Virus record (IMG/VR): IMGVR_UViG_3300007523_000015
Location: 1 to 55,431 of that record
Origin: a virus
Taxonomy: Duplodnaviria > Caudoviricetes
Length of the DNA stretch: 55,431 nt
Reading direction: 5' to 3' (one strand)
Shown here piece by piece: positions 4,750-52,166 of the stretch. Position numbers and translations under genes: made by a program. Under the pieces are notes generated by a model. It saw nothing but the letters and a program-made list of their open reading frames with translations, was not told where the DNA came from and searched no databases. Every line of letters starts with the position of its first letter. The stretch's first letter is position 1.

Positions 4750-5280
4750 CTATTTTTTCTTCAGAAAAGACCTTAACGAGGCAGCACCTTCTAACGGGTC
4801 TACTTTCATGCTCGGCTTAGTCATAGACATGATCTCACCGGATAATGGGTCTATCTTTTGAGCAGTTTTTACCACACTATTCTTCTTCAGTTGATCATAA
4901 ATGTTCTTAGTTGTTGCCATAGTTGCATTATCATCACCCTCTTCCAAGTCTGTGATTCTTAAACTCTTTGTATTGAACATTAAGTCTACTTTCGAACCAA
5001 CACCCGAACTAGAACGCGTCTTCATAAATTGAATTTGGTAACGACCACTTTCTTTCATTGCTGCACTTGTAAAAATACCGACAACGTTATCTGCTGTATT
5101 AACTTTAGAAATACCGCCTGCAATGTGACTTGGGTCGAATTCGATCTCTTCATATGACGAATTGTGTGTAAGAACATCATTAGCAAAGAATAAATGGTCA
5201 CCGGTGGTGGTGATATCTATTGTATCTATTTCACCTATATATTCTATTTCTACAATTTCGTCTTCAAATATTGCTTTCAT
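4750..5280 (-). CDS. 41: gp41/DnaB-like replicative helicase, C-terminal part, preceded by a split-intein C-fragment
   Basis: 40-aa IntC ending ...HLFFANDVLTHN, Ser+1, then helicase C-terminus (SHIAGGISKVNTAD, QFMKTRSSSG). Confidence 0.9.
   Translation of the reverse strand: MKAIFEDEIVEIEYIGEIDTIDITTTGDHLFFANDVLTHNSSYEEIEFDPSHIAGGISKVNTADNVVGIFTSAAMKESGRYQIQFMKTRSSSGVGSKVDLMFNTKSLRITDLEEGDDNATMATTKNIYDQLKKNSVVKTAQKIDPLSGEIMSMTKPSMKVDPLEGAASLRSFLKKK
5161..5280 (-). other. Split intein C-fragment (IntC, 40 aa) of gp41
   Basis: Block F/G IDITTTGDHLFFANDVLTHN|S, similar to the gp41-1 IntC. Confidence 0.9.
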
Positions 5281-6544
5281 TTAAGAACTCCACGCATTCT
5301 GTTATTGTTTGATGTTTATGTTTTACATAGTCCGCCGACCATACTATTTTAATCATGTATCCTAATTCCTGTAAAATACTTAGTCTGATGCGATCCTCTT
5401 CCCAGATCACAGATGAAGTAATCCCCCTTCTCCTCGGATTAGGTGTATCCCGGGGTGCATATATTGACGGGTTAGCATGATAGACATCTCCATAAAATTC
5501 TATTATCCGATTATTATATATCAGATCGGGCTTGATAAAGTGCCGTTTATATTTTCTTTTGGTCTCGTCATCTAGCACAATTGCTGTTTCATTCTCACCA
5601 TAACAAATGGCCCCATTAATAAATACCGAAATATAATCAAACATTTCTGTAGAAATTTTAGATCTAGATCTTGTAGATTTACACGAATTTGCTAAATTAT
5701 CTATTTTCTTTTTAAACAATTTCTTACCTTCTACCTCGCCGTATTTTCCTACAAATGCATCCTCTGTTCCCTTAAATGCTACTCGTGCCCCATTTATATA
5801 TGCTGTGGTTATATCGTTGGACATTTTTGTTATATATTTGAGATAGCTGGTAGTACCGTCGACTTCACCGTGCCTCGAAATAAACGATTCTATCGATGTG
5901 TTGTTCTTAACTTCCTTACACCGTTGACGACCTTCCACATCCCCCAATTCATCTATATATCGTTGACGAGATACCTTGTAACGTTGATTTTTTAGTTTAT
6001 TATAATATACCTCTGAGCCCTTCTCCTTACCATACTTGATAATAAAGAATTCTTCATTGTATTTGGCAAAATTGTATCCATCGATGTGCTTCTGTGCATA
6101 AGATGCTGCACGTTTTATTAAATATGCTTGCCATTTTTGTCTACCTAAAATTTCACCATATCTTTTTATATAATTGCTCTCGGACGCGCCTCGATTTGAT
6201 AATAATTCGTTTGTTCTCTCCACACCATATTTACTAATGTAGTCTGCTCGTGTACGGGCTGATTTAATACATTTTTCCTTAAATCGCCTATACCCTTCTT
6301 TTAATCCATACCTATAATAAAAGAATTTTTTTGATGATGAATCTTTTCCCAATAGAAGTATTTTCGATATACGCTTGCTGAGCGACGAAAACGATACATT
6401 ATATTCCTTTAAAGTCCGGATATACCCGACTACCCGGCTTGCCGACATTTTCCTAGGATTAAATAATTCCTCAGCAACAATTATCTGCTGTTTTTCAAAA
6501 TCAGTAAACCCAATAGGCAAGAGTTTTGATAAATATTTCGACAT
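5264..6544 (-). mobile_element. Free-standing homing endonuclease (Vsr/PD-(D/E)XK-like C-domain, KYG repeats) between the split-intein halves
   Basis: PDLIYNNRIIEFYGDVYHANP; repeated KYG/RYG helical units; ATG at 6544 with GAGGA SD (track uses TTG at 6571). Confidence 0.8.
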
Positions 6545-6576
6545 GTAATTACATCCTCTGTTTAGTTGCAATGCAC

Positions 6577-7872
6577 TTATTTATCTCTTACATACAAGAT
6601 TGACCCCATAGCGAGGCCAGATTCTATACTACATGCCTGGGCTGTAGTTGGGAATATATGAGAACCCGAACAAATAATCTCCTTTCCGGATTTTGTCTTT
6701 ATCTTAAACACTTTTTGTTTCGAATGCCATTTGTCTATAACTGTATTATATACGCCGTCTTTAGACAGGATCTTATCACCTATATTAACATCTTTCAATC
6801 GCACGGTGCCATTTGTTTCAGAAATAATGTTTGTGTTAGGGTGCAGGCAACGGTTCAACTGTGAAGCTGAAACTGTAACAGTCTGTAGTTCCACTGCCAG
6901 GTTACGTAATTCTTCTGTTACATATTTGTCCTTAACAAACAAGTTCTCTGCAGAAATCTTCTTACTCATTGGCATCATTAAATCTAAGTAGTCAACTAAG
7001 ATTGCATCTACTTTTCTTCCCGAATGAATTTCATATTCCTTAATGAATGCTCGTATATCGTTCGACGTACATCCATTGGGAAGTTGCTTAACCCGCAATG
7101 AACCGCCACTCTTTTGCTGCGATGCCCTGACCTTAATGTGAACGTCGTCGATGTTACGCATAACTTCTCGAGTTTCATATCCAGTATGCATTGCATCAAT
7201 ACGCATTGAACAAAGTTTTTCACTAAGTTCTAATGTTAAGTATACTACATTAAATCCAGCCTGGGCCCAATTAACTGCAAGGTTTTGCAAGAAAAGGGAT
7301 TTTCCTGCACCTGATTGTCCTGCAAAGATGGTTATTTCGCCTTTATTAAAGCCGCCATATAGTTTCTCATCGACTGTCTTCCACCCTGTAGAAACTTGTC
7401 CCTTGCCCTCTCTGATCGCCTCGAGACGCTCTTTGGGGTTAGCATAGTAATCTGTTCCCAAATCTTTAACCAGCGCGATCTGTACCGCCGCTTTGATAGA
7501 TGTTTCAACCTCGCCATATCTCCCCTCATCCAATAACTCAGGTGATGCCAATATTGCATCACGCAAAGATTTATATCTACAAAAAAGTTCTATTTCTTTT
7601 AAAAACCATCTATCCTCTTTTGCTGCTACCTCTGGAATAAGTTCAATATTTTTACCCGTAAGTGACCTGACCTGCTCAATAGCCGGCAATGTTGAATAAT
7701 CTTTAAAATGAGAAATAATAATACTAACAACGTCTTTATTTTGCTTATTGTCGAAAAAATTAGCATCTAATATACCGGAACACCTTACAAACAATTCATG
7801 ATTACTCATCATAAATTGTATAAACAACGTTTCTATATCAGAATTGTATTCTTTAATTTCACTTTCCATCAA
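6577..7872 (-). CDS. 41: gp41/DnaB-like replicative helicase, N-terminal part, fused to a split-intein N-fragment
   Basis: Walker [27 protein letters not shown] followed by intein block A CLHPNT. Confidence 0.9.
6580..6849 (-). other. Split intein N-fragment (IntN, 90 aa) of gp41
   Basis: Cys1 CLHPNT...VNIGDKILS...block [10 protein letters not shown]...LYVRDK-stop. Confidence 0.9.
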
Positions 7873-8737
7873 TCTTATCCTTATATTTCTTAATTACAGA
7901 TTCTGATATTTTCTTTTTAGATTCTAAGGAATGATTTTTCCCTGACATACCAGTAACTACCCTTTTTCCAGATTTCCATTCTTCCATTAATCTCTCAGAG
8001 ATTGCAAATTTTTCTTTTGCTGTTTTAGGTGGCAATTTATTTCCTGCATTGGCCTTTCCTATTTTTTCTTTTCTATCATCCGACATTGGTCCTCGCCCTA
8101 ATATCCATCCATTGCTTATATAAGAATTTAATTCATCGAGGCATACCTTTTTTATTATGTCATCTTTTATTATGTATTTCTTACCAGATGGTAACTTGCC
8201 TTTTACCCACCCATCTGATATAAATTTGTCTAGCAAAACCGGATCAATCTTTTTATATTCTATACCGTTGTTTACTGCTATTTTACCTTTTTGTGATTTA
8301 CTCATCCTATCTTTTGTTTCATCGGACCATTTACATCCTGCAGTAGTTGGAATTTTTGTTTTACTTTTTCTTTCTAGCCGTTCTTGTTCGGATAAACTTA
8401 TATAATAGTCCTTTGCAGATTGAGATAATTTTTTAGATGTTTCCTCTGTTGTTATTCTCCCAGCACCCCCTTCTCCGCCGCCAGTTCTGTTCAATAAAAT
8501 TCCGGTCCCGCGGTCTTTTCTTCCCCACCATTTAATATATCTGCGCTCTAATGCAAAAGCACCTACCTCCGATAAATTGTTTTCTAATATAATAATGTAT
8601 GATCTGTTTTTCGGAACAGGGATATTCTTATGGGTACTAAACGCACGGCTGCCGTGACCTTTTCCTATATAATATGGTGTCCCGATTTTTGCTGTAGCAG
8701 AATCTCTGCAACGAATATAGGCATAAATATAAAACAT
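7859..8737 (-). mobile_element. GIY-YIG-like homing endonuclease with NUMOD3-type repeats
   Basis: FYIYAY...PYYIGKG...[10 protein letters not shown], basic C-terminal repeats ([11 protein letters not shown]). Confidence 0.8.
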
Positions 8738-8769
8738 AACTATATTTATCGTATTCTATTAGAAACCTA

Positions 8770-9837
8770 TTAATATTTTCGAATTCTATTCCTTATATTT
8801 TGATCGAGTGCCCACGCAACATCAATCTTTGTTGATCCGGTTACAATTGACGAAATAATAGAATGAGTTGTTAATAATCTTCCGTATTTTTCCGCCGCGG
8901 CTGCTGCATCTTTGATATCCATTCCCCATTTAGGAAATGATACTGACCAATTATTGTCAATTGCTACTTTTACTAAGTCCCAGCCCTTCTTATCTCGGTC
9001 TGGGCAAACTATAATTTCTTTTTGTAGTCTATTTATGATGTCTACTTTGGACTGGCCCATTTCGCCTAAGTTGCTTATACCGTCAACTGTCCATGCATCG
9101 AGGACACCCTCATTAACAATGACATATTTACGCAACCATGCCTGCTGGTGGTCAAGATTATAGACAAAGTCTGTGGGAGATTGTTGGTAATATTTCGGTA
9201 TATCCTTGCCATCTGTGTCGTAGCATAGTCTAGACGTGAATCCTACTATTTTTTGCTTGTAATAATATGGAACTATAAAACGCTGATTTAGATTAAAATC
9301 TGTGCTGGGTGACCAATAGAACTCAGATAAATTGTGGATATTCCTATTTAATACATATTCTGCAACTTTCAGAAAATTTGGATCATCTAATCCGTGTTCC
9401 AACCATTCGGATATAGGTAACGAACCTTCTGGCAGATCCATTGGTTTCCATTTCTGGAACAAATCCCTGAATTTCTTTTCTGGATCTACTAACGTTGTTG
9501 TCTCACCTTCTCTTATACTTTGTATTTGATTCTTCTGCTTAAATATTTCAAACTTCAGTTGTTCAATTAATTTTTCAGCAATATTGATTTGCTTAAGAAA
9601 GAATTTAAAGTTATTGGATAGATCTTCGCCTTCTTTGAATGAAGCTGAGAACCCACAGTTAAAACAGTTTAACGCGATTGTTTGCGGATTAAATTGTATT
9701 CCAAATCTGTGACGTGTGTCTTTACCATGCCCCTGTGTATGACACAACGGACAATTTCTTTTATTCCATTCCTTAGGTGCTTTTTTCAGGGGACCTATGT
9801 TAGATAAAATTGCTTCTTTAATAATATCGGCTATCAT
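8770..9837 (-). CDS. 61: DNA primase (gp61-like)
   Basis: Zn-binding CPLC...CFNC; TOPRIM EGVLDA, PDRD, KDA; adjacent to the helicase. Confidence 0.85.
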   Translation of the reverse strand: MIADIIKEAILSNIGPLKKAPKEWNKRNCPLCHTQGHGKDTRHRFGIQFNPQTIALNCFNCGFSASFKEGEDLSNNFKFFLKQINIAEKLIEQLKFEIFKQKNQIQSIREGETTTLVDPEKKFRDLFQKWKPMDLPEGSLPISEWLEHGLDDPNFLKVAEYVLNRNIHNLSEFYWSPSTDFNLNQRFIVPYYYKQKIVGFTSRLCYDTDGKDIPKYYQQSPTDFVYNLDHQQAWLRKYVIVNEGVLDAWTVDGISNLGEMGQSKVDIINRLQKEIIVCPDRDKKGWDLVKVAIDNNWSVSFPKWGMDIKDAAAAAEKYGRLLTTHSIISSIVTGSTKIDVAWALDQNIRNRIRKY

Positions 9838-9843
9838 ATCGAC

Positions 9844-9872
9844 ATTATAGCAGAAATTCTACAGAAAATCAA
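9844..9872 (-). promoter_or_regulatory. sigma70-type promoter for primase
   Basis: TTGATT-17 nt-TATAAT with extended -10 TG. Confidence 0.6.
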
Positions 9873-9909
9873 GCCGATACATCTATGCCTAATTTTTCCT
9901 TAGCGTAAG

Positions 9910-10923
9910 TTAAAATTTAAAATAATTCTTATAAGAGTTCCACTGCCAGCCCCGTTTAATGTTCGGTTCTGCTTCCGGCCATCTGCCTTTAATTACATCT
10001 TTGGCATAATCATAGGCAGCATCGGGATGTTTCATTATATAAGGTTCTGCTTCCGGCCATCTTCCCTTAATTACATCTCGGGCATAAGCATAGGCAGCAT
10101 AGGGATGTTTCATTATATAAGGTTCTGCTTCCGGCCACCGTCCTCTAATCACATTCGTAGCATATTCTGATAACCGACCCGAGTCATTTTCTAATAATAA
10201 TGATTCGGCTTCCGGCCATCTTCCCTTAATTACATCTTTAGCATACAAATATGCTGTCCTTTCGTTTTTCAATATGATCGGCTCTGCCTTCGGCCACCGT
10301 CCTCTAATCACATTCTTAGCATATTCGTATGCTTTCATCGGATCTTTCAATATCTTTTGTTCTTCCCTTGAAGATAATTTCTGTGGATTTGGATTTTGTC
10401 TCCTATATTCTATATATTCTTTTCCGGTCATCAATTCTTTAGGTTTGTCCTTTATGAGCACATTATTATTGCCGACACCAATACTAGCTGTCCATAAATT
10501 ATCTAGCGAAGAGACTATAACTCGCGGATCAAGTAATAGTGGTTTATATTTACCTATATCGATGTCATTTATATTTTCGGGTGGGACAATTATTGATATT
10601 TTTGTAATATATTTATTTGCATTTTCGATTGTTCCAGTTACATATTCTTCGTATTCAGTTGCCTGGTTTGGTCCTTTTCCGCTGTTATAATCTAAATCTA
10701 TCTGGGGTTTAAGTCTTTTTCCTATATCTCTGTACAATAAATTCTGATTTATAGACAGAACAACATTTCCAAATCTCGGTGCTACTCTTATATCTCTGGA
10801 CAAACTTACACCATGGTTTCCACTTATTTTATTCGACTTTATAATCCCTAATGCTCCACTTAAATCTGTTCCGTGGTATAAATCAGCAGATCTACTTTCC
10901 ATAATGAATTCAAATAATCTCAT
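9910..10923 (-). CDS. Putative ADP-ribosyltransferase-fold protein with five ~26-aa C-terminal repeats
   Basis: LYHGT...GVSLSRD...EYEE; repeats of YAxxVIxGRWPEAE. Confidence 0.5.
   Translation of the reverse strand: MRLFEFIMESRSADLYHGTDLSGALGIIKSNKISGNHGVSLSRDIRVAPRFGNVVLSINQNLLYRDIGKRLKPQIDLDYNSGKGPNQATEYEEYVTGTIENANKYITKISIIVPPENINDIDIGKYKPLLLDPRVIVSSLDNLWTASIGVGNNNVLIKDKPKELMTGKEYIEYRRQNPNPQKLSSREEQKILKDPMKAYEYAKNVIRGRWPKAEPIILKNERTAYLYAKDVIKGRWPEAESLLLENDSGRLSEYATNVIRGRWPEAEPYIMKHPYAAYAYARDVIKGRWPEAEPYIMKHPDAAYDYAKDVIKGRWPEAEPNIKRGWQWNSYKNYFKF
9960..10350 (-). repeat. Five ~78-nt coding tandem repeats
   Basis: Recurring gcttccggcca...ttaattacatct units; the last two are nearly identical. 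Confidence 0.85.
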
Positions 10924-10926
10924 AGA

Positions 10927-11799
10927 TTAAACTCTTACGATAAGTTTTTCTAATACGCCTGGATCTAATACTTCTTTACTAGGAATGTATCTAAACTTTA
11001 ACCACATGAAGTTTGCAGCAAATGTCCAGGCTTGTGTTCCTGTATATCCAAGAAACTCTATGTCTTGTGACGTTGTCGATGGGTAAATCTTAAACCATCG
11101 TGCTGCACTCGGTGTTGGATTTGGGGATTCTTCTAATGTTCCCCAAATTTCAACAATGCCTGTAAAGTTTATTGTATAGGTCGAGAATGAATGCACAGAA
11201 TTAATGTGATTTAATACTCTAGCACCGGCGATTCGGCCAGTGTAGAAACTGTCAACCACTGGACCAAATACCGGAATATTCATATCTGGTGTCCAGTCTT
11301 TTGGCAAATATGTTGTGCTAGGCTTTGGTGCTTTAAATGCTTGCTCGGTAATCTCTATCTCCATTGCTACGTTATCATCTATATCACTAAACAAAGGACG
11401 CTCAACAAACTCGCCTTGCATCCCTGATACAAAATCCTGTGTTCTAATAAGAACCATGTTATAAAGTCCGGCATGTAACGATGCAATGTCCCCTCCATCC
11501 AACTCTAATGTAATAATACCCTTAGCTGGACCTAAGCGGCATAGCTTCTCTAATACTACTCGCCTGTTATCAGGATCCATAATACGAGCATATACTTGCT
11601 GATTGCACGAAATATCTAATGGTGCTCTATCAGGGCCTAATACTCTGAAGATTGCTTTATTATCTATCCCTTTATGGATTTTAATTGGGTTTTTGGACAT
11701 GGGACCGGTATCCTTATATGAAGAGAAAGTATCATCTACCATTAGCAATTGCCTTACATGGTCATATAAATACAATTTATTAAATGTTATATCAGACAT
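10927..11799 (-). CDS. Conserved phage protein, probably structural (beta-rich)
   Basis: Likely start MSDITF at 11799; beta-rich sequence; GATAAATA at 11956-11963. Confidence 0.45.
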   Translation of the reverse strand: MSDITFNKLYLYDHVRQLLMVDDTFSSYKDTGPMSKNPIKIHKGIDNKAIFRVLGPDRAPLDISCNQQVYARIMDPDNRRVVLEKLCRLGPAKGIITLELDGGDIASLHAGLYNMVLIRTQDFVSGMQGEFVERPLFSDIDDNVAMEIEITEQAFKAPKPSTTYLPKDWTPDMNIPVFGPVVDSFYTGRIAGARVLNHINSVHSFSTYTINFTGIVEIWGTLEESPNPTPSAARWFKIYPSTTSQDIEFLGYTGTQAWTFAANFMWLKFRYIPSKEVLDPGVLEKLIVRV

Positions 11800-12017
11800 T
11801 ATGATCTGCGACAGGGTAAAATATGATATTTCTCTGTATAGCCCTGTGGTTGTGTTCTTTCTTTTGCAAGTTTGCATAAGGTTATATATTCATCCACATA
11901 TGCAGACCCGTTTGATATATCAGAAATAATTGTTAAATACTTGTTCATTATTCTATATTTATCTTAAGTGGCACCAAAAAAATTTCCGAAAGGAATGGAA
12001 GTATATAAATATAGACA

Positions 12018-12390
12018 TATGATAAATTTCGACGATATTAAAGACAAATTCCCGTTTATAAGTGGTATACGATGCCATAATATCGAATACATTGGTATTA
12101 TACAAAATTCCGATGATAAAATCATCAGTTTTTATGATTATGAATCAATACGTAGCCCGGAAGAAAAGATATTGTTTCTCGAGCACGGAGAGACATGGTG
12201 GTGGGAAAGTAACCGTTATTTGCCAATTTCGATATTTTTGCAGGGCCAAATGATACCCTTTAGATATTGTCTAAAAACTATAGTTAATAAAGATGTCGAG
12301 ATAATGTTTGGCTCAGTTACAAGTCTAAACAACATAATGAAAAAGCGTATTAAGAAACGGCAAATTCAACTAATACGTAGAATTGATTAA
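12018..12390 (+). CDS. Conserved hypothetical phage protein (WWWESNR motif)
   Basis: ATG near 12018 just after TATAAATA at 12004-12011. Confidence 0.55.
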
Positions 12391-12645
12391 ATTATAGTTG
12401 CTGCTGTTGCAGCATTTTTTGACAGGGCAACAAATGTATTACTATTATCAATTGCGACAGACTGCCAGTTGTTAACTGACGGCATTGTGCGTGTCGTCCA
12501 ATTTATACCATCTGGTGAGCTTACATAAGTCGACGAAGCATTTTTAAGACCCAGAAATACCGCTAAATGCAGGGGGGCCAGATGGGATGCCTGTTGCTTT
12601 TATTCCGCCGGATGGAAAAATCTTACCTGTTATATTCAATGCCAT
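12387..12645 (-). pseudogene. Frameshifted small gene with an Asp-box (BNR-like) motif
   Basis: ATG 12645 with GGAG SD, 33 codons then stop; +1 frame beyond a C6 run reads ...SSPDGINWTTRTMPSVNNWQSVA... Confidence 0.5.
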
Positions 12646-12671
12646 AATATCTCCTAATTTGCTATATTTAT

Positions 12672-13259
12672 TTATTCATTAGATAATTTTTCTATCAACA
12701 GATTTAAATTCACAACAATTGCCAATGCATAGGAAATACTGTGTGATTTTTTAAAATAATAATTCTCGTTGCCTGATTTAATCCACACTTCTTTCTTAAT
12801 ATGTTCCCACGACGACTGCTGCAAATGCGCCTTACCTGGGCGGATTATCGCCAAAATAATAGCTAAATCCTCAACCGACTTGGGTTTAAACTTCTGTAGC
12901 AGGTTGTCATGTCCCTTAAGATGGAATAGTTGATCTGTTATTTCCTGATATTGAAAGAAGTCCCACGGCGGCTCTGTATGTAACAATTCTAATAAATGTG
13001 CTTCATTCAGAATACCGCTATACATATTCACATTTAGGAAATCAATCTTAAAATAGCCATAGTCGCTTGCGATTCTGTGATCTAACGTGGAAATATTAGT
13101 TGTCGGGTCCCTTGGTATGTTTTGGAAGTATACACCTGTTGGATGTTTCTCAAACTTATTTTCTTTACGATCTATTCGACCAAATATGCATTCTGTTTTA
13201 GAAAGTATGTCATCCCTGCCAAAGACGTCTATGTCTACATCAGTTTGTACAGATCGCAT
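12672..13259 (-). CDS. Miniature DNA polymerase III alpha (DnaE/PolC, family C)-like protein
   Basis: DVDID, KHPTGVY, GYFKIDFLN, LAIIRPG, YYFKKSHSISYA match the DnaE motifs PDxDxD, HAxG, KxDFLG, RPG, FNKSH. Confidence 0.75.
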   Translation of the reverse strand: MRSVQTDVDIDVFGRDDILSKTECIFGRIDRKENKFEKHPTGVYFQNIPRDPTTNISTLDHRIASDYGYFKIDFLNVNMYSGILNEAHLLELLHTEPPWDFFQYQEITDQLFHLKGHDNLLQKFKPKSVEDLAIILAIIRPGKAHLQQSSWEHIKKEVWIKSGNENYYFKKSHSISYALAIVVNLNLLIEKLSNE

Positions 13260-13261
13260 AT

Positions 13262-13966
13262 TTACAACCCTGCCTGTTCTAATAAATTCTTAATATATTC
13301 CACATCATCGGAATTTTGTTTAAATTTCTTCATCCAAAACCCAGCATCTATAATATTGCCAATAATGTTACCGTGCTCTTCATTGAATCTACACATCAAT
13401 TCTCCACCGGATAAACACAGATATAATACCCACGGGCTAATCTTTCCCGTCTTTATCATATATGCAGCTTCATTTACAGAAACTACAGAGAAGAATTTAA
13501 TAAATTCTTCTCTATTATCTTCCGACCACGCCATAATAGTAGTTATGGTTCTTTCTGTAGCACTAATTGCTGGTTCCTTCTTTAACAGATCTTCGATGAA
13601 TGTATAATAGATAACGTCCTTTGTCCAGTCTTTTAATGCTACCCCACCTTTAATAACAGAATCAATGAATTGATCCATGTGCAAAGGTTTCAGAGATACT
13701 AAATGATGACCGAACTTAACAAAAGCAATGTAGTATGGGCTATCAATAAATTCTTCTTGTGTCTTTGGTGTCTTATTTTTAGTCGTCAATTCAAAGAATC
13801 TCTGGAATACTCTGAATCCAAATCGTGGGCCTGATGATCCTAGGTCAGCATACCTGCGTTTCTTGACGCACATATGAGTTGCCAGGGTTATATCTTTGTG
13901 AAATTTCTTATTACAGAATTTACATTGATGATTCTGTTCCATTTTCTTTTTACTTACGCTTTGCAT
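13262..13966 (-). CDS. Conserved phage protein with N-terminal Zn finger
   Basis: CKFC...HMC. Confidence 0.55.
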   Translation of the reverse strand: MQSVSKKKMEQNHQCKFCNKKFHKDITLATHMCVKKRRYADLGSSGPRFGFRVFQRFFELTTKNKTPKTQEEFIDSPYYIAFVKFGHHLVSLKPLHMDQFIDSVIKGGVALKDWTKDVIYYTFIEDLLKKEPAISATERTITTIMAWSEDNREEFIKFFSVVSVNEAAYMIKTGKISPWVLYLCLSGGELMCRFNEEHGNIIGNIIDAGFWMKKFKQNSDDVEYIKNLLEQAGL

Positions 13967-14534
13967 CTGCCTTTAGGAGTTCTTTAATAGTTTTATTATC
14001 ATATCCATTCGACATAAAAAAGTCTTCCAATTCTTCTGTCGTATTTACTTCTAACAACAACTCTAATTCGTCATCTTTCATCATAGGATAAAATTTCAGT
14101 ATTTCTTCCTCTAACTTATTCTTGGTTGCGCCTTTGCCGGGTTTAATGAATTTACGTCTTGGCGATTTACCAGTACCACAGAGTGTCAGAAGCATCCATT
14201 GTAACTCTTTATGACCAGCTTTGCCCATAGTCTTTAATGGTGCTAACACTGAAAAGTTAGCATTGACAAAATCATTTACTGACAATAAATAATGTGGCTG
14301 ATCATTATTTGAATCTGCTGAAGCCAGCCATCGCATTAAAATCCAAGGCTCTATACTATCTTTCTCGTCCTGATTCAAGTTACGATAATAGAATTTGTCT
14401 TGTCTGTCAATCGCAGGTAATACTTGCCTAAACAAATCTAGCTTGTAAGATTTTGCTTCTTCGGCATTATCGCTTTCTTTAGAGTCGGGATTTAATTCAA
14501 AGAATTCGCCCAACCAACTGTCTATATTACTCAA
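13950..14534 (-). CDS. Putative clamp-loader small subunit (gp62-like)
   Basis: PWILMRWLAS...HKELQWMLL...KFIK pattern; replication context. Confidence 0.5.
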   Translation of the reverse strand: MSNIDSWLGEFFELNPDSKESDNAEEAKSYKLDLFRQVLPAIDRQDKFYYRNLNQDEKDSIEPWILMRWLASADSNNDQPHYLLSVNDFVNANFSVLAPLKTMGKAGHKELQWMLLTLCGTGKSPRRKFIKPGKGATKNKLEEEILKFYPMMKDDELELLLEVNTTEELEDFFMSNGYDNKTIKELLKADAKRK

Positions 14535-15033
14535 AAAGTGCCCCTATATCGATCACATCAGGAAGTTTACTAACCTCTTTAACAAATAATACACAATTCG
14601 GGTAAGGTTTATCTTCTACTGGTACAACCAAAATATTTCCATTCTTTAACTTAGGAAAGAACCATTTCACTTCTGCATACACATTTGTAATGTTTATTTG
14701 CTGTGGTCTCGGCACCATATGCCTTAAAGGATTATACACCATTGTGTGAAATTCTCTATCATTCAAACTTGTAAGTGGCATAACTTCCAAATCACTATAA
14801 TCTTCATCACATACCAATATACACCAATCTAGTGGCATTTGTATGGTGTATTTTCCAATATTTAATACCACTGCTGGTGCCGAGAAGCTTTCTAGAAATA
14901 TAAGTGGGATAAAGAAATAGTCCGGATTCTTCGGATCAGAATAATCAAGAACTGCGTACCTGATATCTTCAATTTCGTTTGGAATCTTATCCAAATTATA
15001 TGCTTTATTTTCGTTCGTGAGGATGAATGTCAT
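14527..15033 (-). CDS. Conserved hypothetical phage protein
   Basis: 168-aa ORF with AAGG SD, coupled to the downstream gene. Confidence 0.5.
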   Translation of the reverse strand: MTFILTNENKAYNLDKIPNEIEDIRYAVLDYSDPKNPDYFFIPLIFLESFSAPAVVLNIGKYTIQMPLDWCILVCDEDYSDLEVMPLTSLNDREFHTMVYNPLRHMVPRPQQINITNVYAEVKWFFPKLKNGNILVVPVEDKPYPNCVLFVKEVSKLPDVIDIGALFE

Positions 15034-15114
15034 TAATATACCTTATGATAAATAAGTGTAGTTCGCGATACTATCAATATCCAACTACTCTAACGCCTAT
15101 CAGGAGCAATCAGC

Positions 15115-15780
15115 ATGATATTTATCGACAACAAATACACTAAGTGTTATTTTAACATCATTGCTATAGCAAAAGCAAGAATTTCGATTACGGGTTATGT
15201 AGAAAAACATCATATTTTGCCACGATCACTCGGTGGAAATAATACTACATCTAATTTAGTGCAATTAACAGCACGAGAACATTTTATATGCCACGCATTA
15301 CTAACTAAAATGACATCTGGGGATGATAGAAGAAAAATGATTTTTGCTTCTAATATGATGTTGTGTGGTAAAAATAGATATGTCCCGTCTGGTAAAATCT
15401 ATCAGATTGTAAAGGAAGATTTTGCCAAAATGTCTTCTATATTACATACTGGAAAATCTATATCAGATAAACAGAAATTATTAATTTCGGAAGCAAATAA
15501 GAATAAAATTGTTTCAGATGAAACATGTATTAAAATTTCTAATAGTAAGATTGGAAAGAAAAGAAAATTGTTTACCGAATCTGCCAAAGAAAATATGAGT
15601 AAATGCAAATTAGGTGAAAAGAATGCAAATTTTGGAAAAACTTTCACGGCTTGCACAATAGAAAAAATGAAGTTATCTGCACAAAATCGGTCTAAATTAA
15701 AATGCCTCTGCGGAAAGGAATGTTCGCCATCAAATTTCAAAAGATGGCATGGAGATAACTGCAAGTTAATTAAATCCTAG
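15115..15780 (+). mobile_element. HNH homing endonuclease with NUMOD3, inserted antisense
   Basis: EKHHILPRSLGG...NLV.LTAREHFICH; C-terminal CxC...WHGDNC; own GATAAATA at 15047-15054. Confidence 0.85.
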
Positions 15781-16101
15781 TGTTTCTTTTCTATATACTT
15801 CCCAGTCGGCATCTAACTTCTTCGGATCTCGTGCAGGACCATATTTGCCGTATGATATCGACCGCTGGCTCACTCCGCATTTGATCAGGTAATCGTAGAG
15901 CATATTCTCGAAACCAAGGTGTCTATATGACAAAAATGTAATGCTTGTCGCAGTTTCTGATGCATCGTTATATGTCAATGTTATCTTCGTCTGATACATG
16001 CCGGGGGATCGTTCCGATATAATAACATCTAATTCATTGGCTGTCATGAATATTTCTATCAGATCCTTATATCCCCACGATATATTTGTTTCTACTATCA
16101 T
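15766..16101 (-). CDS. Hypothetical protein
   Basis: 111-aa ORF coupled to the UvsW C-part (TAATG). Confidence 0.45.
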   Translation of the reverse strand: MIVETNISWGYKDLIEIFMTANELDVIISERSPGMYQTKITLTYNDASETATSITFLSYRHLGFENMLYDYLIKCGVSQRSISYGKYGPARDPKKLDADWEVYRKETLGFN

Positions 16102-16946
16102 TAATAAGTTACCTTTTTAACAGAATACGGATACTCTGCCTCCGCATAAAATTTCTTTCTCTTTGTCAAGTGTCGTTTGGAGAATTTGCAGTTCGAGCAT
16201 ACATCATAAACATTTACAAAGTCCTTATCTGGTGCAACACGAATGCCACGTCCGATACTTTGTATAACCCTTACAAAACTCTTACCAGATTCAAATAATA
16301 CAAGATTAAAAATACGAACAATATTAATGCCCGTAGATGCTACACCATATGTAGCAATAATGACCTTCCCGTCTATTTCTTGAACTTCTTTATATTCGTC
16401 CTTACGGTCCTTTGACTTCATCTGTCCAGAAACAAATACCGAATCTGGTATAAGCAATTGTAACATCTTTCCCGTCTCGATTCTATCTACCAGCACAAGA
16501 GTATTACCCGACTCGGACATAATCTCTACTGACTGTGCAAGAAACTGTAGTCTTGCCTGATTAGTTGTTAACCATTTGAGTTCTGATTGATAATCACTGA
16601 AGGCTGCTGCTTTTAATAAATCCTGCAACTGCCAGACATTCACATGCAATTGTGCAAGTATGCCTTTGTCCTGAAGTTCTTTTGTATTAATTTTGCCAAG
16701 CATCGAGCCAATACATGCCAATATAGACATTTTTTCATGGTCTTCTTCTGGCATTGTTCCGGTTAGTCCCCACCGTATCGGGGCGTTTGCTAACGGGCCA
16801 GATAAGATTTTACGAAGCACATCGGCTTTCGCCTTGTGGCAATTCTGAACTACTGCATCATTAACGATAAAGTTATGGTCATCTTTTATACCTAATGTAT
16901 ATACTTCGGGCGGCTTATCTATTTCTGTTCTTTTTATAAGTTTCAT
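16101..16946 (-). CDS. uvsW: UvsW SF2 helicase, C-terminal part, preceded by a split-intein C-fragment
   Basis: 35-aa IntC ...HNFIVNDAVVQN|CHKAK, then GLTGT, STGINI, QSIGRGIR. Confidence 0.9.
   Translation of the reverse strand: MKLIKRTEIDKPPEVYTLGIKDDHNFIVNDAVVQNCHKAKADVLRKILSGPLANAPIRWGLTGTMPEEDHEKMSILACIGSMLGKINTKELQDKGILAQLHVNVWQLQDLLKAAAFSDYQSELKWLTTNQARLQFLAQSVEIMSESGNTLVLVDRIETGKMLQLLIPDSVFVSGQMKSKDRKDEYKEVQEIDGKVIIATYGVASTGINIVRIFNLVLFESGKSFVRVIQSIGRGIRVAPDKDFVNVYDVCSNCKFSKRHLTKRKKFYAEAEYPYSVKKVTY
16842..16946 (-). other. Split intein C-fragment (IntC, 35 aa) of UvsW
   Basis: MKLIKRTEI...VYTLGIKDDHNFIVNDAVVQN|C; penultimate Gln instead of His. Confidence 0.85.
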
Positions 16947-17012
16947 AGTTTCTTTATCTTATTCTGAGTTTTGATATCAAATAACAACATGCTGATCCCA
17001 TTCTCTACGATC

Positions 17013-18038
17013 TTATGTATTTCGGTTTATGCTTTTTATATCATCTGCAAGAGACAATTGATCTGCTCGTACCCAACCTCGTTGAGTTAAAAACTTATGA
17101 TTTCCTGTAACTTTTATTTTCTTATTATTATCGAACTCTAATTTATACATTTTTTCATTTGACGATTTTGTCAGATTTTTATAGACTGCATCAACGGTAT
17201 CTTCTTTGAATATATTCTCCATTTCTGAATAGTTTATTATCCTATCCCCGACTTTTATTTCCGATATTTTCAAATAGCCCAATGATGTCAAGACTAATGC
17301 ATCTGGGTGAAAACATTCGTCCACCATAACGCAAACTACTCCTTCGAAGAAATCGTTTATATCGATCTCTAAATCGGTTTCTTTCGAACGCTTTGCTAGG
17401 CTTTCCAGACTTTGCCATGTACATATAGTGTGAGTTTTTAAATACTCTTTCCTATCTCCATAAAATACGCCTACATCTAATCCAAGATTGATATAATCTT
17501 CTTCTGTTTGCGTTACTAAATCCTTAGTCGGCACAATCACTATGCTGCGACCATACTGCTGAACCTTATGGCTTAAAATCGCCGTAATTAGCGTTTTTCC
17601 CGAGCCGGTCGGGCAAATATTTACACCGGTTAAGTTGTTCAAATACGAATTAATGCATTCGGTTTGGTGTTCCTTGATAACAATCGGTTGTCCGGCAAGT
17701 GTATGTCCTTTGGGCCAGGTGATATGTGAATAGCTATCTGCAACTACTTCGTCGAAGACAAAGTCGTGTGTCGTATCTCTAAGATCATCTATTTCTATTT
17801 CATATCCCTGTGCCTGAACAATGGGCAACAATGTATCTAATAGATTAAGATATGTGCGCGCTCCTACATCACAGAAAGAGATCTTACCGTTCCATCTTCC
17901 GAGCCGATAAGCTGGAGTATATCGTGCATGCTCCATAAAGAATTCTAAAGACTGTGTCATTTTTCGTCGTGTGACGATATCAAGCCCCTCGAACTTTACG
18001 TTACATTCATCTTGTATGATTAGTTTTGTTGTTGCCAT
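17013..18038 (-). CDS. uvsW: UvsW SF2 helicase, N-terminal part, fused to a split-intein N-fragment
   Basis: PTGSGKT, IVPTKDLVTQ, TWQSL, VMVDE|CFHPDA. Confidence 0.9.
   Translation of the reverse strand: MATTKLIIQDECNVKFEGLDIVTRRKMTQSLEFFMEHARYTPAYRLGRWNGKISFCDVGARTYLNLLDTLLPIVQAQGYEIEIDDLRDTTHDFVFDEVVADSYSHITWPKGHTLAGQPIVIKEHQTECINSYLNNLTGVNICPTGSGKTLITAILSHKVQQYGRSIVIVPTKDLVTQTEEDYINLGLDVGVFYGDRKEYLKTHTICTWQSLESLAKRSKETDLEIDINDFFEGVVCVMVDECFHPDALVLTSLGYLKISEIKVGDRIINYSEMENIFKEDTVDAVYKNLTKSSNEKMYKLEFDNNKKIKVTGNHKFLTQRGWVRADQLSLADDIKSINRNT
17016..17315 (-). other. Split intein N-fragment (IntN, 100 aa) of UvsW
   Basis: CFHPDALV...IKVGD...block B VTGNHKFLT.RGWVRADQL. Confidence 0.88.
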
Positions 18039-18047
18039 TTATATCTG

Positions 18048-18404
18048 TTACGGAGTTTTAGCCGTTAATAATGTGAAAAAGTCCCTGCCCATCTTTTCAT
18101 AGAATGCAGAATCCAATGCAGTACCATCCTGCACTATCTCAATCGGCAATCTTACTGTCATTTCTATCTCCGGAGCAAATTTGTTATTATTCATTGTTAC
18201 TTGTTTTTTTACTAATGTTATCATATGTTTCCTTGTAATTTTTACCATGCCATTAAGACTTTTAGGCAGTATGTGATGCTTTTCTGTATATCCGGTTAAA
18301 ATCCGTGATGACGTAGAAGTAATAATATTCCTATACCACAAAGTATATTTTGAATTTTTACTCATCTCATCTACAATATCTAAATAGTCACACACTTGCA
18401 TCAT
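18048..18404 (-). pseudogene. Truncated HNH endonuclease remnant in frame with a small ORF (MNNNKFAPEIE...)
   Basis: KYTLWYRNII...GYTEKHHILPKSL matches the starts of the HNHs at 15115 and 28659, then breaks off. Confidence 0.6.
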
Positions 18405-19403: not shown

Positions 19404-20504
19404 TTATTCCTTTTCCTTTTCTTCTGCTTGTTTTCTCTCATCTTCGTCCGTGATAACTGCAATTAGATCGTCTTGTGTGAATTCATTCATTAGAATCTTC
19501 ATACTTTCTAGATCATTGTTCCAAGCCTTCTTAAACTGCTTAATCACTTTACCAGTTACTCCGGAAGTATAGACATAACTGTTACCTTCCTTAACCAGTT
19601 TCCCGGCTTTTTCGAAAAGATCGAACAGACCCGATGTGGGATTCATACCTGTTTCCCACGGAATATCAATCTTAATTGATTCGAACGGTTTCGAATATCG
19701 TGTCTTAACAACTTTACATGTTGCACGAATTCCTCGAATATCGGCACCGGTAGTTTTGTTTCCGTCTTCGTCTTCTTTAAGTTTATATTTCTTCATAGCA
19801 ATAATGATACTAGATGCAAACATGAATCCAGATCCGCCTGAAATCTTGTCATCTGGATCAAACATATCCTGGCTTGCATATGTGTGATTTGTAACAACCA
19901 TACCAATATTCAAGTCACCGAACATATTAACACAATTAGATACGAATGCCTTTAACTGTTTTGCTTTTCGACCCATGTCGCCTTTCATATCAGCTGCTTC
20001 GAACTGTTTAACTTCTGTAGGAGTTAATAACATGCCCAAAGAGTCAATAATGAATAAGATTTTTGGTCGATTTTCTTTTGCTAAGTCTAGATGATTTGCT
20101 TTGTAGTCGGTCACAAATGCGTGAACAATTCCTGCAACGTCATCAATCATTGATGCGCTAATACGTAACATCTTTTCTTCGCTTGTGTCTACACCTAAAT
20201 TGTGCAACCACTTTTCATCAAGTGCATTCTCTGTGTCAATCATAACAACAAAGATTCCCTGTTCCTGAGCATTCTTAGCAATGTTGCCAGAAACAATATA
20301 TGATTTGCCGGCTCCTGATTCGCCTGCAAATACTGTTACCTTACCCATCGGGACTCCGCGATCGAAGTCTCCGCTGATAAGGAAGTTTAAACCGTAGGAT
20401 CCTGTACTAACCCAAGTATCGGGGTCGTTGAATCCTGTAGAAATTCCTGTAATACTTTTAGTCACAGCTTTCCTAAATTTTGATATGTCAAACGGCTTAG
20501 CCAT
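19404..20504 (-). CDS. uvsX: UvsX RecA-like recombinase
   Basis: GESGAGKS, IDTENALD, IDSLG, SGGSG. Confidence 0.9.
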   Translation of the reverse strand: MAKPFDISKFRKAVTKSITGISTGFNDPDTWVSTGSYGLNFLISGDFDRGVPMGKVTVFAGESGAGKSYIVSGNIAKNAQEQGIFVVMIDTENALDEKWLHNLGVDTSEEKMLRISASMIDDVAGIVHAFVTDYKANHLDLAKENRPKILFIIDSLGMLLTPTEVKQFEAADMKGDMGRKAKQLKAFVSNCVNMFGDLNIGMVVTNHTYASQDMFDPDDKISGGSGFMFASSIIIAMKKYKLKEDEDGNKTTGADIRGIRATCKVVKTRYSKPFESIKIDIPWETGMNPTSGLFDLFEKAGKLVKEGNSYVYTSGVTGKVIKQFKKAWNNDLESMKILMNEFTQDDLIAVITDEDERKQAEEKEKE

Positions 20505-21156
20505 TATAATTTTCCTTTTTATAAATTATATTAATATGTTTCTTAAAATTTCCAGGATCATACATTTTGCCACAATGCAAACACGAGATGCGAGCCGAAG
20601 TAACACCTTTATTCCATGCTATTTTTCCAGAATGTAACTTGGATAAATTATCCTTAAATTCCTGTGTTCTGATCTTCCCCTTATTCTTGTGATTGTTTGT
20701 ATCCTGTTGTTTAAATTTTATTCCCTTCCTTCCGTTAGGGTGACCTTTGCGACTTTCACTATTCTTAAAGTTCTGTTCTGGTGTTCTCTTTATTCCCTTA
20801 TTTGCAGATCCCATTTTAATACGAGTTTGTATAGATGGATTCGAGTTGCCTTCCCCGCCATCTGTTAAATTAAGCAATGTGCCCAGCCCCGTATCTTTTC
20901 TTCCGAATTTTGCAATTAATTCCACTTCTATCAAAAATGAAAATTCTTCATCTAATCCAGAATATAAGCCTATAACAGGTTTAATATTGTTTCTCTTCAT
21001 GAATTGTAATCGTTGTATAAACGGATGCCTTTTACGGCGAGTCAAATGTTGCCAGGCTCGTGTCCCGTGCCCTTTTCCCACATAAATAGGCTCGTTATTA
21101 CGAGATGGGTCATAATAGATATAGGTGTAGAATTTATCAATCATATACAAAAGCAA
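20497..21156 (-). mobile_element. GIY-YIG-like homing endonuclease
   Basis: FYTYIY...PIYVGKG..R, LLNLTDGGEG, NUMOD3-like tail, CLHC. Confidence 0.8.
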
Positions 21157-28155: not shown

Positions 28156-28662
28156 CTATTTATCAGAGTTTTCGGTTTTACTCGACACTATGTGACGCAA
28201 TAACTCGTTTCTGTCAAATTCAGTACCTTGCTGACCTTTTGCAGGGCCACTGCCATTTTCGAAATCAATTTGCTCTGATCGAATCCGTCTTAGTTGCAAT
28301 TCGATCATTTTTAATTTTCTATCAGCTTTGGCATTTTTAGCCTCTAATGCTGTCTTCAGCATTTGGCCGGCAACTTCGTAAATTTTCCCAGCATGTATGT
28401 CAGGCACATTACCACCTAACGCAATTAGGTCGTTGAATGTGTCAACTGCTTTTTTCGCAATAGAGTCCATTTCGCCGTCATGGGCATCTAAACCTATCAC
28501 AGTTGGCAACGAATAGTCAACTTTTTCCGCAGTAGTTAATGCATTATAAATTTCCTTTGCATCCACCATTAACTGCTCTCTTGTCATAACCGGCTTATCT
28601 TCTTCTGGTTCAGATGATTCCGCAGGCGGAATATTAAAAAAATCTTCCATTTTGCGAGTCAA
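28156..28662 (-). CDS. Helical conserved protein, candidate terminase small subunit
   Basis: Size, coiled-coil character, upstream of terL; assignment inferred. Confidence 0.35.
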   Translation of the reverse strand: MTRKMEDFFNIPPAESSEPEEDKPVMTREQLMVDAKEIYNALTTAEKVDYSLPTVIGLDAHDGEMDSIAKKAVDTFNDLIALGGNVPDIHAGKIYEVAGQMLKTALEAKNAKADRKLKMIELQLRRIRSEQIDFENGSGPAKGQQGTEFDRNELLRHIVSSKTENSDK

Positions 28663-29330
28663 AGTATACCCTCCTTCTTTTTATTTTGTGCTGTGCGACG
28701 GGCGGCGGACCAAGGCCTATTTTTCCGTGCCTTTCCCATTTCGATAAGATGTGTGTTATTTCTTTTCGACGCTGCAATTGATTTATTCCTGCATTCTTCT
28801 TTAGAATCTTTCTTCCCTGTGCTCGATGCACTTATTTTATCTGCTCGGGCCTGTGTGTATACGACAGGATTACAACAAGATTTTGCCATACGTTCGGACA
28901 TCTCATTCTTAGAGAGTTTAGCCAAGGTGGCCGACATGCCCGCACTAATCTTTTTCTTTGATTCTGCAGAGTGAGATATTAAATATGCAGGATGACCTGT
29001 TTGTGCTTCAATAAACATTGACTTACCGATTTCATACATTCTGGATGTAGGTTTATATCGTCGTAAATTACTGTTACACATTCTCCAAAATGCATATTTC
29101 ATCTTCTTTCTGAATTCGTCTACGACAGATTTTGTTAGAAGTAAATGGCAAATATAATGCTCTTTAGCCGTTAGTGAGACTATATTCTTTTTAGCATTCG
29201 ATCCACCCATCGATTTAGGAATAATATGGTGATTTTCGGAATATCCCAAAGAGATGCGATTTCTGGCGCCATCGATTATATTAAAATACCACACTGAATA
29301 TTTGTTATTCAGGAAGATTTTTTTAGTCAC
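28659..29330 (-). mobile_element. HNH homing endonuclease
   Basis: ENHHIIPKSMGG...LTAKEHYICH. Confidence 0.85.
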
Positions 29331-29572: not shown

Positions 29573-29708
29573 GTCTCTCCATTGCACCTTTTAATATCTT
29601 GTTCATTTCCCTAAGGGAATCTAACTGACCTTGTATTTTTTCTTCATTGGTTAATTCGGCCTGTTCATCTATTTGTTTTTGTTCTTTATCGACCTTTTTA
29701 TCTTTCAT
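29547..29708 (-). CDS. Small charged hypothetical protein (53 aa)
   Basis: Hand translation MKDKKVDKEQKQIDEQAELTNEEK...; fills the gap with an ATGA overlap. Confidence 0.4.
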   Translation of the reverse strand: MKDKKVDKEQKQIDEQAELTNEEKIQGQLDSLREMNKILKGAMERHETIRSNH

Positions 29709-31212
29709 ACCGTACCCATTATATATTTATTTTCTATATCCCATATCCACACATCGTTGCCACAGTCCCAAAGCCGATCATATCCATTGTTCTTCATATT
29801 GTCCCATTCTGTAATATTGCAATCAAAATTCTCCAGTAATTCGGACAATTTATGTTTTTGATATTTTAATCTATTCTCGAAAGTATAATAATTCTTTGTA
29901 TAATAGTATGCTGGATTGGATGAATGAGAATATTTAAATCCTAGCACTGTGTACATATTTCCGTTAAATTTGTCTATATGAGAATATGATGTAATATGCT
30001 CCCACTTATATCTAATTATCGAATATTTGAAAAGTTTAGAACTTCCTCCAATGACACTTGTATTAAGTTTATTACAAAATCTCAGTAACTCGATACCAGA
30101 TTTTTTAAATCTTGCTTTCCCAAAAGACATTACCGAAACTAGTTCATTTTCATAGTATAGGCCGTGACACACCGAACTAGAGACATATCCTTGTAAATGG
30201 TTATTATTTAGAAACTCTCGTTCAGTGATAGCATCAATTTCTCTAATTTCTGTTTTTCTAGCATATAATGTATTCGATAATCTTAGTCTTGATTTTATCA
30301 TAGATTTTATTATATCTTTCTTATATTTCCATTCATAATCGAAAATATGTAAAAGATCAATTTCTGTCTTTCTACATTCGTTTGTTTTATTTATATGATA
30401 ATACTTATCTTTGTTTCCGGAAAGTTCCGAATGCCAAAAGGCACCGTTGTATTCGATTGCTAATTTGAGTTCAGGTAGTAGATATCAAGCTCTTTAGGGG
30501 GAATAATGGATCTATTATTTAATATAATGCTAATGTCCGGGACTAAGGATTTAATAAATAACGAAATTTCCAGCTCTTCTTGTGATTTTATAAAATATAA
30601 TACATCAATCCCATTCTTATTATACATTTTTCCTAGTTGGGATTTACTTATACCTAATTCTTCTGCAATAATATATATGGGTCGTTGATTAACTTGATGT
30701 TCTGTCTGCAGCCAGACTGTGTCATTAGATTTTAATATAGCGTCTTGAGTAATATGGGTTTGTGTGTGATTAGATCTTCCATACTTTAATAAATTAGTAG
30801 TTCGTGTTTTCTCTTTTGTACTGATCAACTTTGACGGAAACTCTACATTATATTTTTTTAAATTTGTTGCCTTTATAGAATCCATTACCGATTTATTCTG
30901 TGTCGGAAACTCTGTACCGTATCTCTCAATATTAGTAAATTTAATCCGATCTCTTATTTTGCTATTCATCAATGGATTTTCAACGCCATATCTTTCGATA
31001 TTCGTTTTCTTGTATTTTTCTTTTAATTCCTGCGATTGTGCTGTATTTTCTACACCGTATCTTTCGAGATTCGTTTTTCTTCTTTTTTCCTTTATACTGT
31101 CCATGATAAAATTTCGAGATATGACTTGCCCAATCTTGCTACAGGCTGTCGAGCAATATAGTATGCCTTTCTTACCAACAATATTTTCGCACTTCTCTAA
31201 TTTACATTTCAT
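29705..31212 (-). pseudogene. Frameshifted KYG-repeat/Vsr-like homing endonuclease, paralog of 35668-37227
   Basis: Frame breaks at ELDIY (~30478); the other frame continues PELKLAIEYNGAFWHSE... into the 29705-30301 ORF. Confidence 0.8.
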
Positions 31213-51728: not shown

Positions 51729-51741
51729 GAAACTTTAATCA

Positions 51742-52162: not shown

Positions 52163-52166
52163 ATTC

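Follow-up and report, generated by a model that had tools for sequence, protein, structure and literature searches.

Two helicase genes broken by split inteins

The 55,431-base IMG/VR record IMGVR_UViG_3300007523_000015, in the following called the window, comes from an uncultured giant phage and as a whole corresponds to about 14% of the genome according to CheckV. On its minus strand, which carries almost all of its genes, two helicase genes are interrupted by split inteins. The gene of a gp41-type replicative helicase (4750-7872) is broken in two, with the N-extein and the N-terminal intein part (IntN) separated by an endonuclease gene from the C-terminal intein part (IntC) and the C-extein, and the gene of the UvsW helicase (16101-18038) is broken inside motif II (DE|CH) by a split intein with an IntN of 100 amino acids (aa) and an IntC of 35 aa. 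The claim of the initial annotation that both helicases are split by inteins within 13 kb is thereby confirmed, position 5161 belonging to the last codon of the gp41 IntC and position 17315 to the first codon of the UvsW IntN.

At the gp41 locus, the N-extein (6850-7872, minus strand; 341 aa, ending in SASQLNR) matches Pfam DnaB_C (E 1.5e-19) and the DnaB-like helicases of PHROG 19 (E 4e-58). It is colinear with the helicase of intein-free relatives, as is the C-extein (4750-5160, minus strand; 136 aa), which begins with a Ser at position +1 (SSYEEIEF...), the relatives reading QLNR|GSYEEI, and which is also delimited by the empty-site contig of sequencing run X5 described below. The N-terminal open reading frame (ORF; 6577-7872) continues from the extein into an IntN of 90 aa that starts with Cys1 (CLHPNT...; 6580-6849, minus strand) and ends at a stop codon at 6577-6579, and the C-terminal ORF (4750-5280), preceded by a GGAG ribosome-binding site, opens with an IntC of 40 aa (5161-5280, minus strand) that has a net charge of -9 and ends in VLTHN. 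Both halves match the solved gp41-1 intein (6QAZ/6RIZ), with E values of 1.1e-13 to 1.7e-13 for the IntN and of 3.9e-7 for the IntC. The splicing residues are all there, namely Cys1, the block B His (H405, invariant in the alignment), the terminal THN and Ser+1, and judged from its sequence the intein is a class 1 intein (Cys1, HN|Ser+1) of the gp41-1 family. Eight helicase N-halves from a collection of 5.8 billion proteins (P0002-P0009) contain IntNs that are 45-48% identical to the one of the window and have an invariant stretch of 16 residues in common, two of them (P0002 and P0003) with inteins at other insertion points. The IntC of a protein from another phage (P0036) is 78% identical, likewise acidic and followed by the junction THN|SSAEE. 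A scan of viral contigs with the gp41 IntN returned eight distant loci only.

The gene between the gp41 halves (5264-6544, minus strand; 426 aa; PHROG 22677) is free-standing and was assigned to the Vsr-like (EDxHD-type) homing endonucleases by an AlphaFold model and structure comparison. Its ORF begins six bases past the stop of the gp41 N part, has its own ribosome-binding site (GAGGA) 9 nt upstream and overlaps the start of the IntC by 17 nt at its 3' end. The model (mean pLDDT 85.6) comprises a long helical-repeat N-terminal domain, and residues 292-425 are predicted to resemble both E. coli Vsr (1cw0_A; Z 10.7, rmsd 2.8, 112 aligned) and the catalytic domain of I-Bth0305I (3r3p_A; Z 10.0, rmsd 2.3, 95 of 97 aligned). 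Among the 24 members of the family, E319, D340, E349, G352 and H356 are invariant and D353 and D384 nearly so; as modelled, the protein adopts the fold of Vsr, and acidic residues and His are among its conserved positions. Sequence searches of the PDB with the endonuclease gave chance matches only, plain Foldseek with the model returned nothing at E <= 0.001, and in a scan of viral contigs none of seven pattern matches was confirmed. According to the available part of its description (PMC3239194), I-Bth0305I is encoded in a group I intron in recA, whereas the endonuclease of the window is free-standing inside a split intein.

With adjacent ORFs on the same strand, colinear exteins, intein halves and an endonuclease gene in between, the gp41 locus is a fractured gene and adds to the gp41-1/fractured-gene systems that have been known since 2009. 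It differs from them in its host, a relative of the PA5oct/Rak2-like giant phages instead of a cyanophage, in the long helical-repeat domain of its endonuclease and perhaps in its insertion point, which may be shifted by a few residues relative to that of gp41-1. The kinetics of gp41-1 were reportedly treated by Carvajal-Vallejos et al. in 2012. Dassa et al. (2009; PMC2677866) describe gp41 genes fractured in this way, the family of Vsr-like endonucleases and a gp41-7 locus that lacks the endonuclease; their systems agree with the window in an IntN that starts with Cys1 and measures about 90 aa, a Vsr-like endonuclease gene, an acidic IntC of about 40 aa and a THN|Ser junction. In the parts of the more recent papers at hand (PMC6823396, PMC7090010), gp41-1 appears as a widely used fast split intein.

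At the UvsW locus, all parts of which lie on the minus strand, the N-extein (17316-18038; 241 aa) ends with VMVDE, the first half of motif II, and was identified by Pfam ResIII, DEAD and UvsW_N, by PHROG 16259 and by 80 related loci. It is followed by an IntN of 100 aa (17016-17315; Pfam Intein_splicing and PT-HINT) with Cys1 (CFHPD...), block B T70-G-N-H73 and a stop codon at 17013-17015, by a spacer of 66 nt with in-frame stops (16947-17012) and by an IntC of 35 aa (16842-16946; MKLIKRTEID...AVVQN, in full MKLIKRTEIDKPPEVYTLGIKDDHNFIVNDAVVQN), which has a Gln as its penultimate residue and was recognized by alignment of IntCs and by a weak match to the DnaE-type IntC. The C-extein (16101-16841; 246 aa) starts with Cys+1 (CHKAKAD) and is assigned by Pfam Helicase_C, by its relatives and by PHROG 9690, which covers the IntC and the extein. 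The two ORFs accordingly span 17013-18038 (N part) and 16101-16946 (C part), and joining VMVDE to CHKAKAD would restore the DECH motif II of UvsW. Among the residues expected of a class 1 intein, Cys1, the block B Thr-x-x-His, the C-terminal Asn and Cys+1 are present; C1, T70, N72 and H73 are invariant in the 11 aligned IntN rows, and I9, Y16, L18, H24, N25, V32, N35 and Cys+1 in the 12 aligned IntC rows. Over the whole record, all three matches to Pfam Intein_splicing fall into these two loci, one across both UvsW halves (E 8e-16, over the cut-off), one in the gp41 IntN (E 6e-5) and one in the gp41 IntC (E 2e-3).

Intein-bearing and intein-free relatives

To place the two inteins among their relatives, IMG/VR was scanned with the N part of UvsW, and the 80 loci that were kept were tabulated by tblastn of nine parts of gp41 and UvsW. 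UvsW is intein-free in 67 of them, the motif reading DE-V-H in 60, DE-C-H in three and DE-T-H and DE-A-H in two each, and carries an intein at the same point as in the window in the other 13. In ten of these 13 genes the intein is split, the +1 codon following the IntN stop at a distance of 1013-1040 nt, and the gap between the halves of one of them (L003) holds an ORF of 308 aa that resembles gp114.1 of Salmonella phage S16. The remaining three (L035-L037, mutually identical) are contiguous mini-inteins of 141 aa, the one of L035 lying at about 812-1234 at the DE|CH point, with Ser as its penultimate residue. Among the loci compared, the window thus holds the sole split UvsW copy that lacks an intervening gene.

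The UvsW-type intein is also found in cultured phages. The UvsW IntN is 58% identical to gp114 of S16 and of its relatives and 57% identical to its counterpart in Proteus phage PM2, and since PHROGs 16259 and 9690 each cover a UvsW half including the intein part, such halves are present in cultured-phage genomes. S16 (gp114/gp114.1/gp115) and PM2 agree with the window in the DE|CH point, the basic IntC start and Cys+1; unlike the window, however, they have kept a penultimate His and, between the halves, an endonuclease-like ORF of 291 aa ("hypothetical protein"). Their helicase halves are annotated only as "DNA helicase", with the intein unannotated, and literature searches on UvsW or phage S16 in combination with inteins, the results of which were checked in part, yielded no paper describing a UvsW-type split intein.

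The layout at the UvsW locus of the window has no free-standing endonuclease gene between the halves, which are separated by 66 nt only. Both halves are in the same frame, but three stops (one TGA and two TAA, inside the Pfam match) intervene, so that the gene is truly split and a read-through of the break, despite the shared frame, can be ruled out. The last 50 nt or so of the spacer can be aligned with the 3' terminus of the endonuclease ORF in L003, and this remnant indicates that an intervening endonuclease gene has been deleted. In the available part of Dassa et al. (2009), the gp41-7 locus likewise has adjacent intein halves after the loss of its endonuclease, which corresponds to step III of their model; the UvsW locus differs from it in host gene and intein family and in that a spacer hairpin is retained in gp41-7, whereas in the UvsW spacer no such structure was found (z = 0.01).

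Since the window is a metagenomic contig and its split layout without endonuclease is shared by none of the 15 intein-bearing UvsW loci compared (13 viral loci, S16 and PM2), one could suspect that the UvsW intein is in reality contiguous or still endonuclease-bearing and that the spacer of 66 nt is an assembly or sequencing error. In that case, however, three separate in-frame stops would all have to be errors. Moreover, a single contig of the public sequencing run X1 (which may be the source sample) spans 10874-18100 with one difference at a depth of 23.8, a contig of run X4 (16970-17355) includes 43 nt of the spacer, and the same proteins were found on six contigs, a contig of 114,873 bases being among those that carry them. 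We hence consider an artefact to be exceedingly improbable.

Three public runs contain the whole stretch and may represent the source sample. Run X4 comes from another sample, study and year and has contigs that are at least 99% alike to the window over the endonuclease gene (6223-6534), over the junction of gp41 extein and IntN (6652-7199) and over the UvsW IntN with the 43 nt of spacer. In run X5, from yet another sample and study, a contig of 390 nt aligns to 5020-5154 and 6854-7043 of the window and skips the 1699 nt between them, with 10 letters in their place. Read in frame, it gives ...SQLN-R-G-S-YEEIEF, which is the commonest intein-free junction of the relatives, and its flanks differ from the window in 4 of 135 and 11 of 190 letters. 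This contig shows the site of the whole element of IntN, endonuclease and IntC to be precisely empty in a near-identical phage. A second X5 contig crosses the junction of UvsW extein and IntN (17214-17364, three differences).

Taken together, the two intein elements occur independently of each other among the relatives compared by sequence. Of the 80 loci, 21 show the gp41 junction, which is intein-free in every one of them, QLNR being followed by G (13), T (3), A (3) or S (2) and then by x-x-EE. L035 and L037, the only two of the 13 intein-bearing UvsW loci in which the whole gp41 junction is visible, thus have the UvsW intein and an intein-free gp41, and none of ten S16/PM2-type records is listed among the 18 phage records with a match resembling the gp41 IntN.

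A closer view of the UvsW intein is offered by the comparison with L003, for which proportions of differing sites and no dN/dS values are given, as synonymous sites are saturated, and from which the C-extein was left out because of an indel. The proportion of synonymous differences was 0.60 in the IntN and 0.80 in the flanking N-extein. This lower value in the intein hints that the UvsW intein moved between the lineages of the window and of L003 after their host genes had diverged.

Origin, splicing and orthogonality of the two inteins

From our point of view, these findings are most probably explained by two independent invasions, in which selfish intein elements unrelated to each other each entered a helicase gene of a giant phage rich in endonucleases. 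The Vsr-like endonuclease would presumably cut intein-free gp41 alleles of co-infecting relatives, upon which the whole element of 1.7 kb could be copied into them, and an S16-type split intein in motif II of UvsW would later have lost its endonuclease gene, with the 66-nt spacer and its stops being left behind. For both helicases, sequence and homology suggest that the halves would associate via their intein parts and trans-splice to ...QLNR-SSYEE... and ...VDE-CHKA..., respectively.

The biology behind such loci is ordinary, as phage proteins for replication and repair collect selfish intein and endonuclease elements in their conserved motifs. A further case is Pseudomonas jumbo phage MIJ3, which stands near the closest cultured relatives of the window and has a fractured PolB gene with a split intein and an HNH endonuclease gene; host gene, intein and type of endonuclease all differ from those of the window (PMC6892783). 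What the present lineage offers is a joint display of several stages of the Dassa model, namely an empty site, an endonuclease-bearing fractured gene, an endonuclease-less split gene and a contiguous mini-intein. The precise empty gp41 allele of a near-identical phage represents a natural target for homing tests with the Vsr-like endonuclease, and the UvsW-type split intein (100 + 35 aa, Cys+1), widespread and present in the cultured phages S16 and PM2, would be a candidate tool for protein ligation.

Several points weigh against the two-element explanation. The UvsW IntC lacks the canonical penultimate His and has a Gln instead, and a Thr is aligned to the block F Asp of DnaE-type inteins. 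The C half of UvsW has no Shine-Dalgarno core of 4 nt before its ATG; this core is present in only 28 of the 69 ORFs of the window and missing in 41. At gp41, the local exteins are LNR/SSY, compared with SGY/SSS for gp41-1 in the available part of PMC6823396. The X5 contigs are short (151-390 nt), have a depth of about 3 and maybe do not derive from one strain, and no RNA run covering 16700-17400 was listed among the public runs. Finally, as the record comprises only about 14% of the genome, further inteins may exist elsewhere in it.

The penultimate His (block G) and the block F Asp are residues that assist splicing, the block F Asp being catalytic. One could therefore imagine that the UvsW pair no longer splices, so that its halves merely dock onto each other as a clasp or UvsW is being lost, and the missing endonuclease gene and the weak ribosome-binding site of the C half would fit such a decay as well. 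The nucleophiles and block B, however, are kept (C1, T70, H73, the terminal Asn and Cys+1). The penultimate residue varies within the UvsW intein family (H, E, Q, A, S or K), including in the contiguous copies, which must splice in cis: lying inside motif II, they interrupt a helicase that would need splicing there, and a non-splicing insert should kill it. At the block F position, the family has N or T, with Asn in most relatives, and the closest relative, L003, has a Thr like the window. In addition, the intein does not change faster than the extein (the proportions of non-synonymous differences to L003 are 0.12 for the IntN, 0.11 for the IntC and 0.18 for the N-extein), and neither extein is damaged, each sharing 76-80% of its residues with its counterpart in L003. 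We thus regard a loss of splicing as unlikely. As a natural cis-splicing counterpart, the mini-intein of L035-L037 would lend itself to tests of the unusual residues in blocks G and F.

Structure prediction is consistent with an association of the cognate UvsW halves. A three-chain prediction with the gp41 IntN, the UvsW IntN and the UvsW IntC as partner reached the grade "supports binding" with a score of 0.64, the best of three controls scoring 0.29; in the calibration, 116 of 157 solved complexes and 2 of 215 mismatched pairs attained the mark for this grade, and the present prediction differs from that calibration in its use of custom alignments and of three chains. Between runs, at least 92% of contacts coincide, the pLDDT of the partner is at least 67, and the residues predicted with confidence at the interface belong to the UvsW IntN only. 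It may be, however, that the pass reflects the model's memory of solved split-intein complexes or a mere likeness to them. The control in which the UvsW IntN was replaced, with the UvsW IntC and the gp41 IntN kept, scored 0.29, which is under the mark and is neither a verdict on cross-binding nor evidence of orthogonality.

That the two split inteins differ from each other, as had been proposed initially, holds in each respect named. Their IntNs are identical at 21 of 80 positions and their IntCs at 11 of 30; the +1 nucleophile is Ser in gp41 and Cys in UvsW; and the net charges are +5 (IntN) and -9 (IntC) for gp41 and +2 (IntN) and -1 (IntC) for UvsW, with +1 for the first 15 residues of the UvsW IntC. 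As far as can be judged from sequence, a cross-reaction between the two pairs is very improbable, since they come from separate intein lineages and have only about a quarter of their residues in common. As divergence alone predicts this, no selection is needed, and orthogonality is what one normally finds among unrelated split inteins and not an adaptation to co-residence. Of 16 unrelated inteins that Pinto et al. tested together in vivo, 15 proved mutually orthogonal (PMC7090010). Beyer et al., in the portion considered here, report that allelic DnaE split inteins cross-react and that a swap of the charge network alone gave no orthogonal Npu DnaE but did so for an engineered DnaB split (bioRxiv 10.1101/546465). 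Charge by itself is thus a poor predictor of orthogonality.

The initial annotation had gone further in proposing that the pairs are co-adapted, with orthogonality selected against chimeras of gp41N and UvsWC and possibly with a post-translational gate on replication. The location of gp41 and UvsW on one strand in one block of replication and recombination genes as well as the differing IntC charges (-9 versus -1) and +1 residues could be quoted in its favour. These traits are, however, inherited where the other intein is absent. An acidic IntC and Ser+1 are common to gp41-1 and P0036, and in gp41-1 a positive IntN and a negative IntC were described (Dassa et al., 2009; PMC2677866, in the part available). 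The basic start (MKLIKK) and Cys+1 of the UvsW IntC recur in all 12 aligned rows, and the same is seen in S16 and PM2, so that the traits of each lineage are kept in gp41-1 and P0036 on the one side and in S16, PM2 and the 13 viral loci on the other. Furthermore, intein-free alleles are the majority among the relatives for both genes, with a precise one for gp41 in a near-identical phage, orthogonality is already the default among unrelated split inteins (PMC7090010), and Npu DnaE did not become orthogonal through the charge swap alone (bioRxiv 10.1101/546465). As such, selection for orthogonality by co-residence is not supported, the proposed gate finds no support either, and we deem a co-adapted pair very improbable.

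Another idea concerns UvsW, namely that trans-splicing was co-opted, so that active UvsW would need balanced halves, and that the two pairs form a working, naturally orthogonal Ser+1/Cys+1 set. This is conceivable since the UvsW intein stayed split after the loss of the endonuclease, while in other lineages it was re-fused to a mini-intein; we nevertheless give it a small chance at best and prefer two independent invasions by selfish elements.

Neighbouring genes and other features of the window

Scans with PHROG and Pfam place both loci in a replication and recombination block on one strand that comprises the gp41/DnaB-like helicase, primase, UvsW, UvsY, UvsX and a gp32-like single-stranded DNA-binding protein; other genes of the window encode a terminase, tail sheath, tail tube, rIIA/rIIB and DHFR. 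By DNA, the closest cultured relatives are giant phages, PA5oct/MIJ3-like ones for gp41 and the primase and Rak2/CBB-like ones for UvsW, with 69-73% identity over short pieces.

Free-standing genes resembling homing endonucleases are very numerous in the window according to PHROG and Pfam (7859-8737, 20497-21156, 40738-41544, 15115-15780, 28659-29330, 50394-51215, 18048-18404, 29705-31212, 34026-34925, 35668-37227 and 43022-43870). They include three of the GIY-YIG/NUMOD3 type, three full HNH genes and one truncated HNH remnant, and several with DUF7487, which belong to PHROG 3339/559 ("homing endonuclease") and one of which is apparently split into the ORFs 29705-30301 and 30460-31212. Such genes are inserted between core genes, for instance between primase and gp41, UvsX and gp32, and tail tube and sheath. 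The one between primase and gp41 (7859-8737, minus strand) is a GIY-YIG/NUMOD3 gene (Pfam NUMOD3; PHROG 314, homing endonuclease) that PA5oct-like phages lack, helicase and primase adjoining there. UvsW is flanked by two others: the truncated HNH remnant lies immediately upstream (18048-18404, minus strand; PHROG 655 over residues 4-52 only), and an HNH/NUMOD3 gene lies downstream on the opposite strand (15115-15780, plus strand; PHROG 655, E 2e-49; Pfam NUMOD3 and HNH_5).

Promoter-like sites between 4000 and 19000 numbered 77, with 59.7 expected, and none was compelling at the gp41 or UvsW locus. The motif TATAAATA occurs nine times, with 9.45 expected, and not at all in the two loci.

Between the two loci, a gene for a protein of 337 aa (9910-10923, minus strand) contains a tandem repeat of 26 aa that includes DVIKGRWPEAEP; at the DNA level, the repeat measures 78 nt and is present in 2.2-2.6 copies at 9965-10164. 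Contigs of run X1 break and join inside this gene, which suggests variation in repeat number or trouble in the assembly, and two X1 joints within it (10062-10874) as well as a joint at 6344-12116 in run X4 (side 22) were treated as spurious. Four tRNA genes (Arg-CCT, Arg-CCG, Arg-TCT and Val-GAC) lie at 51852-54209 on the minus strand, and the ORFs at 51496-52106 and 53566-54174, being overlapped by them, are probably not genes. Lastly, an ORF of 195 aa (12672-13259, minus strand) matches PHROG 11778 ("DNA polymerase", E 1e-61) and, weakly, the finger domain of Pol III alpha, and it resembles the truncated Pol III alpha-like protein CBB_328 described for phage CBB in the available part of PMC5259590.

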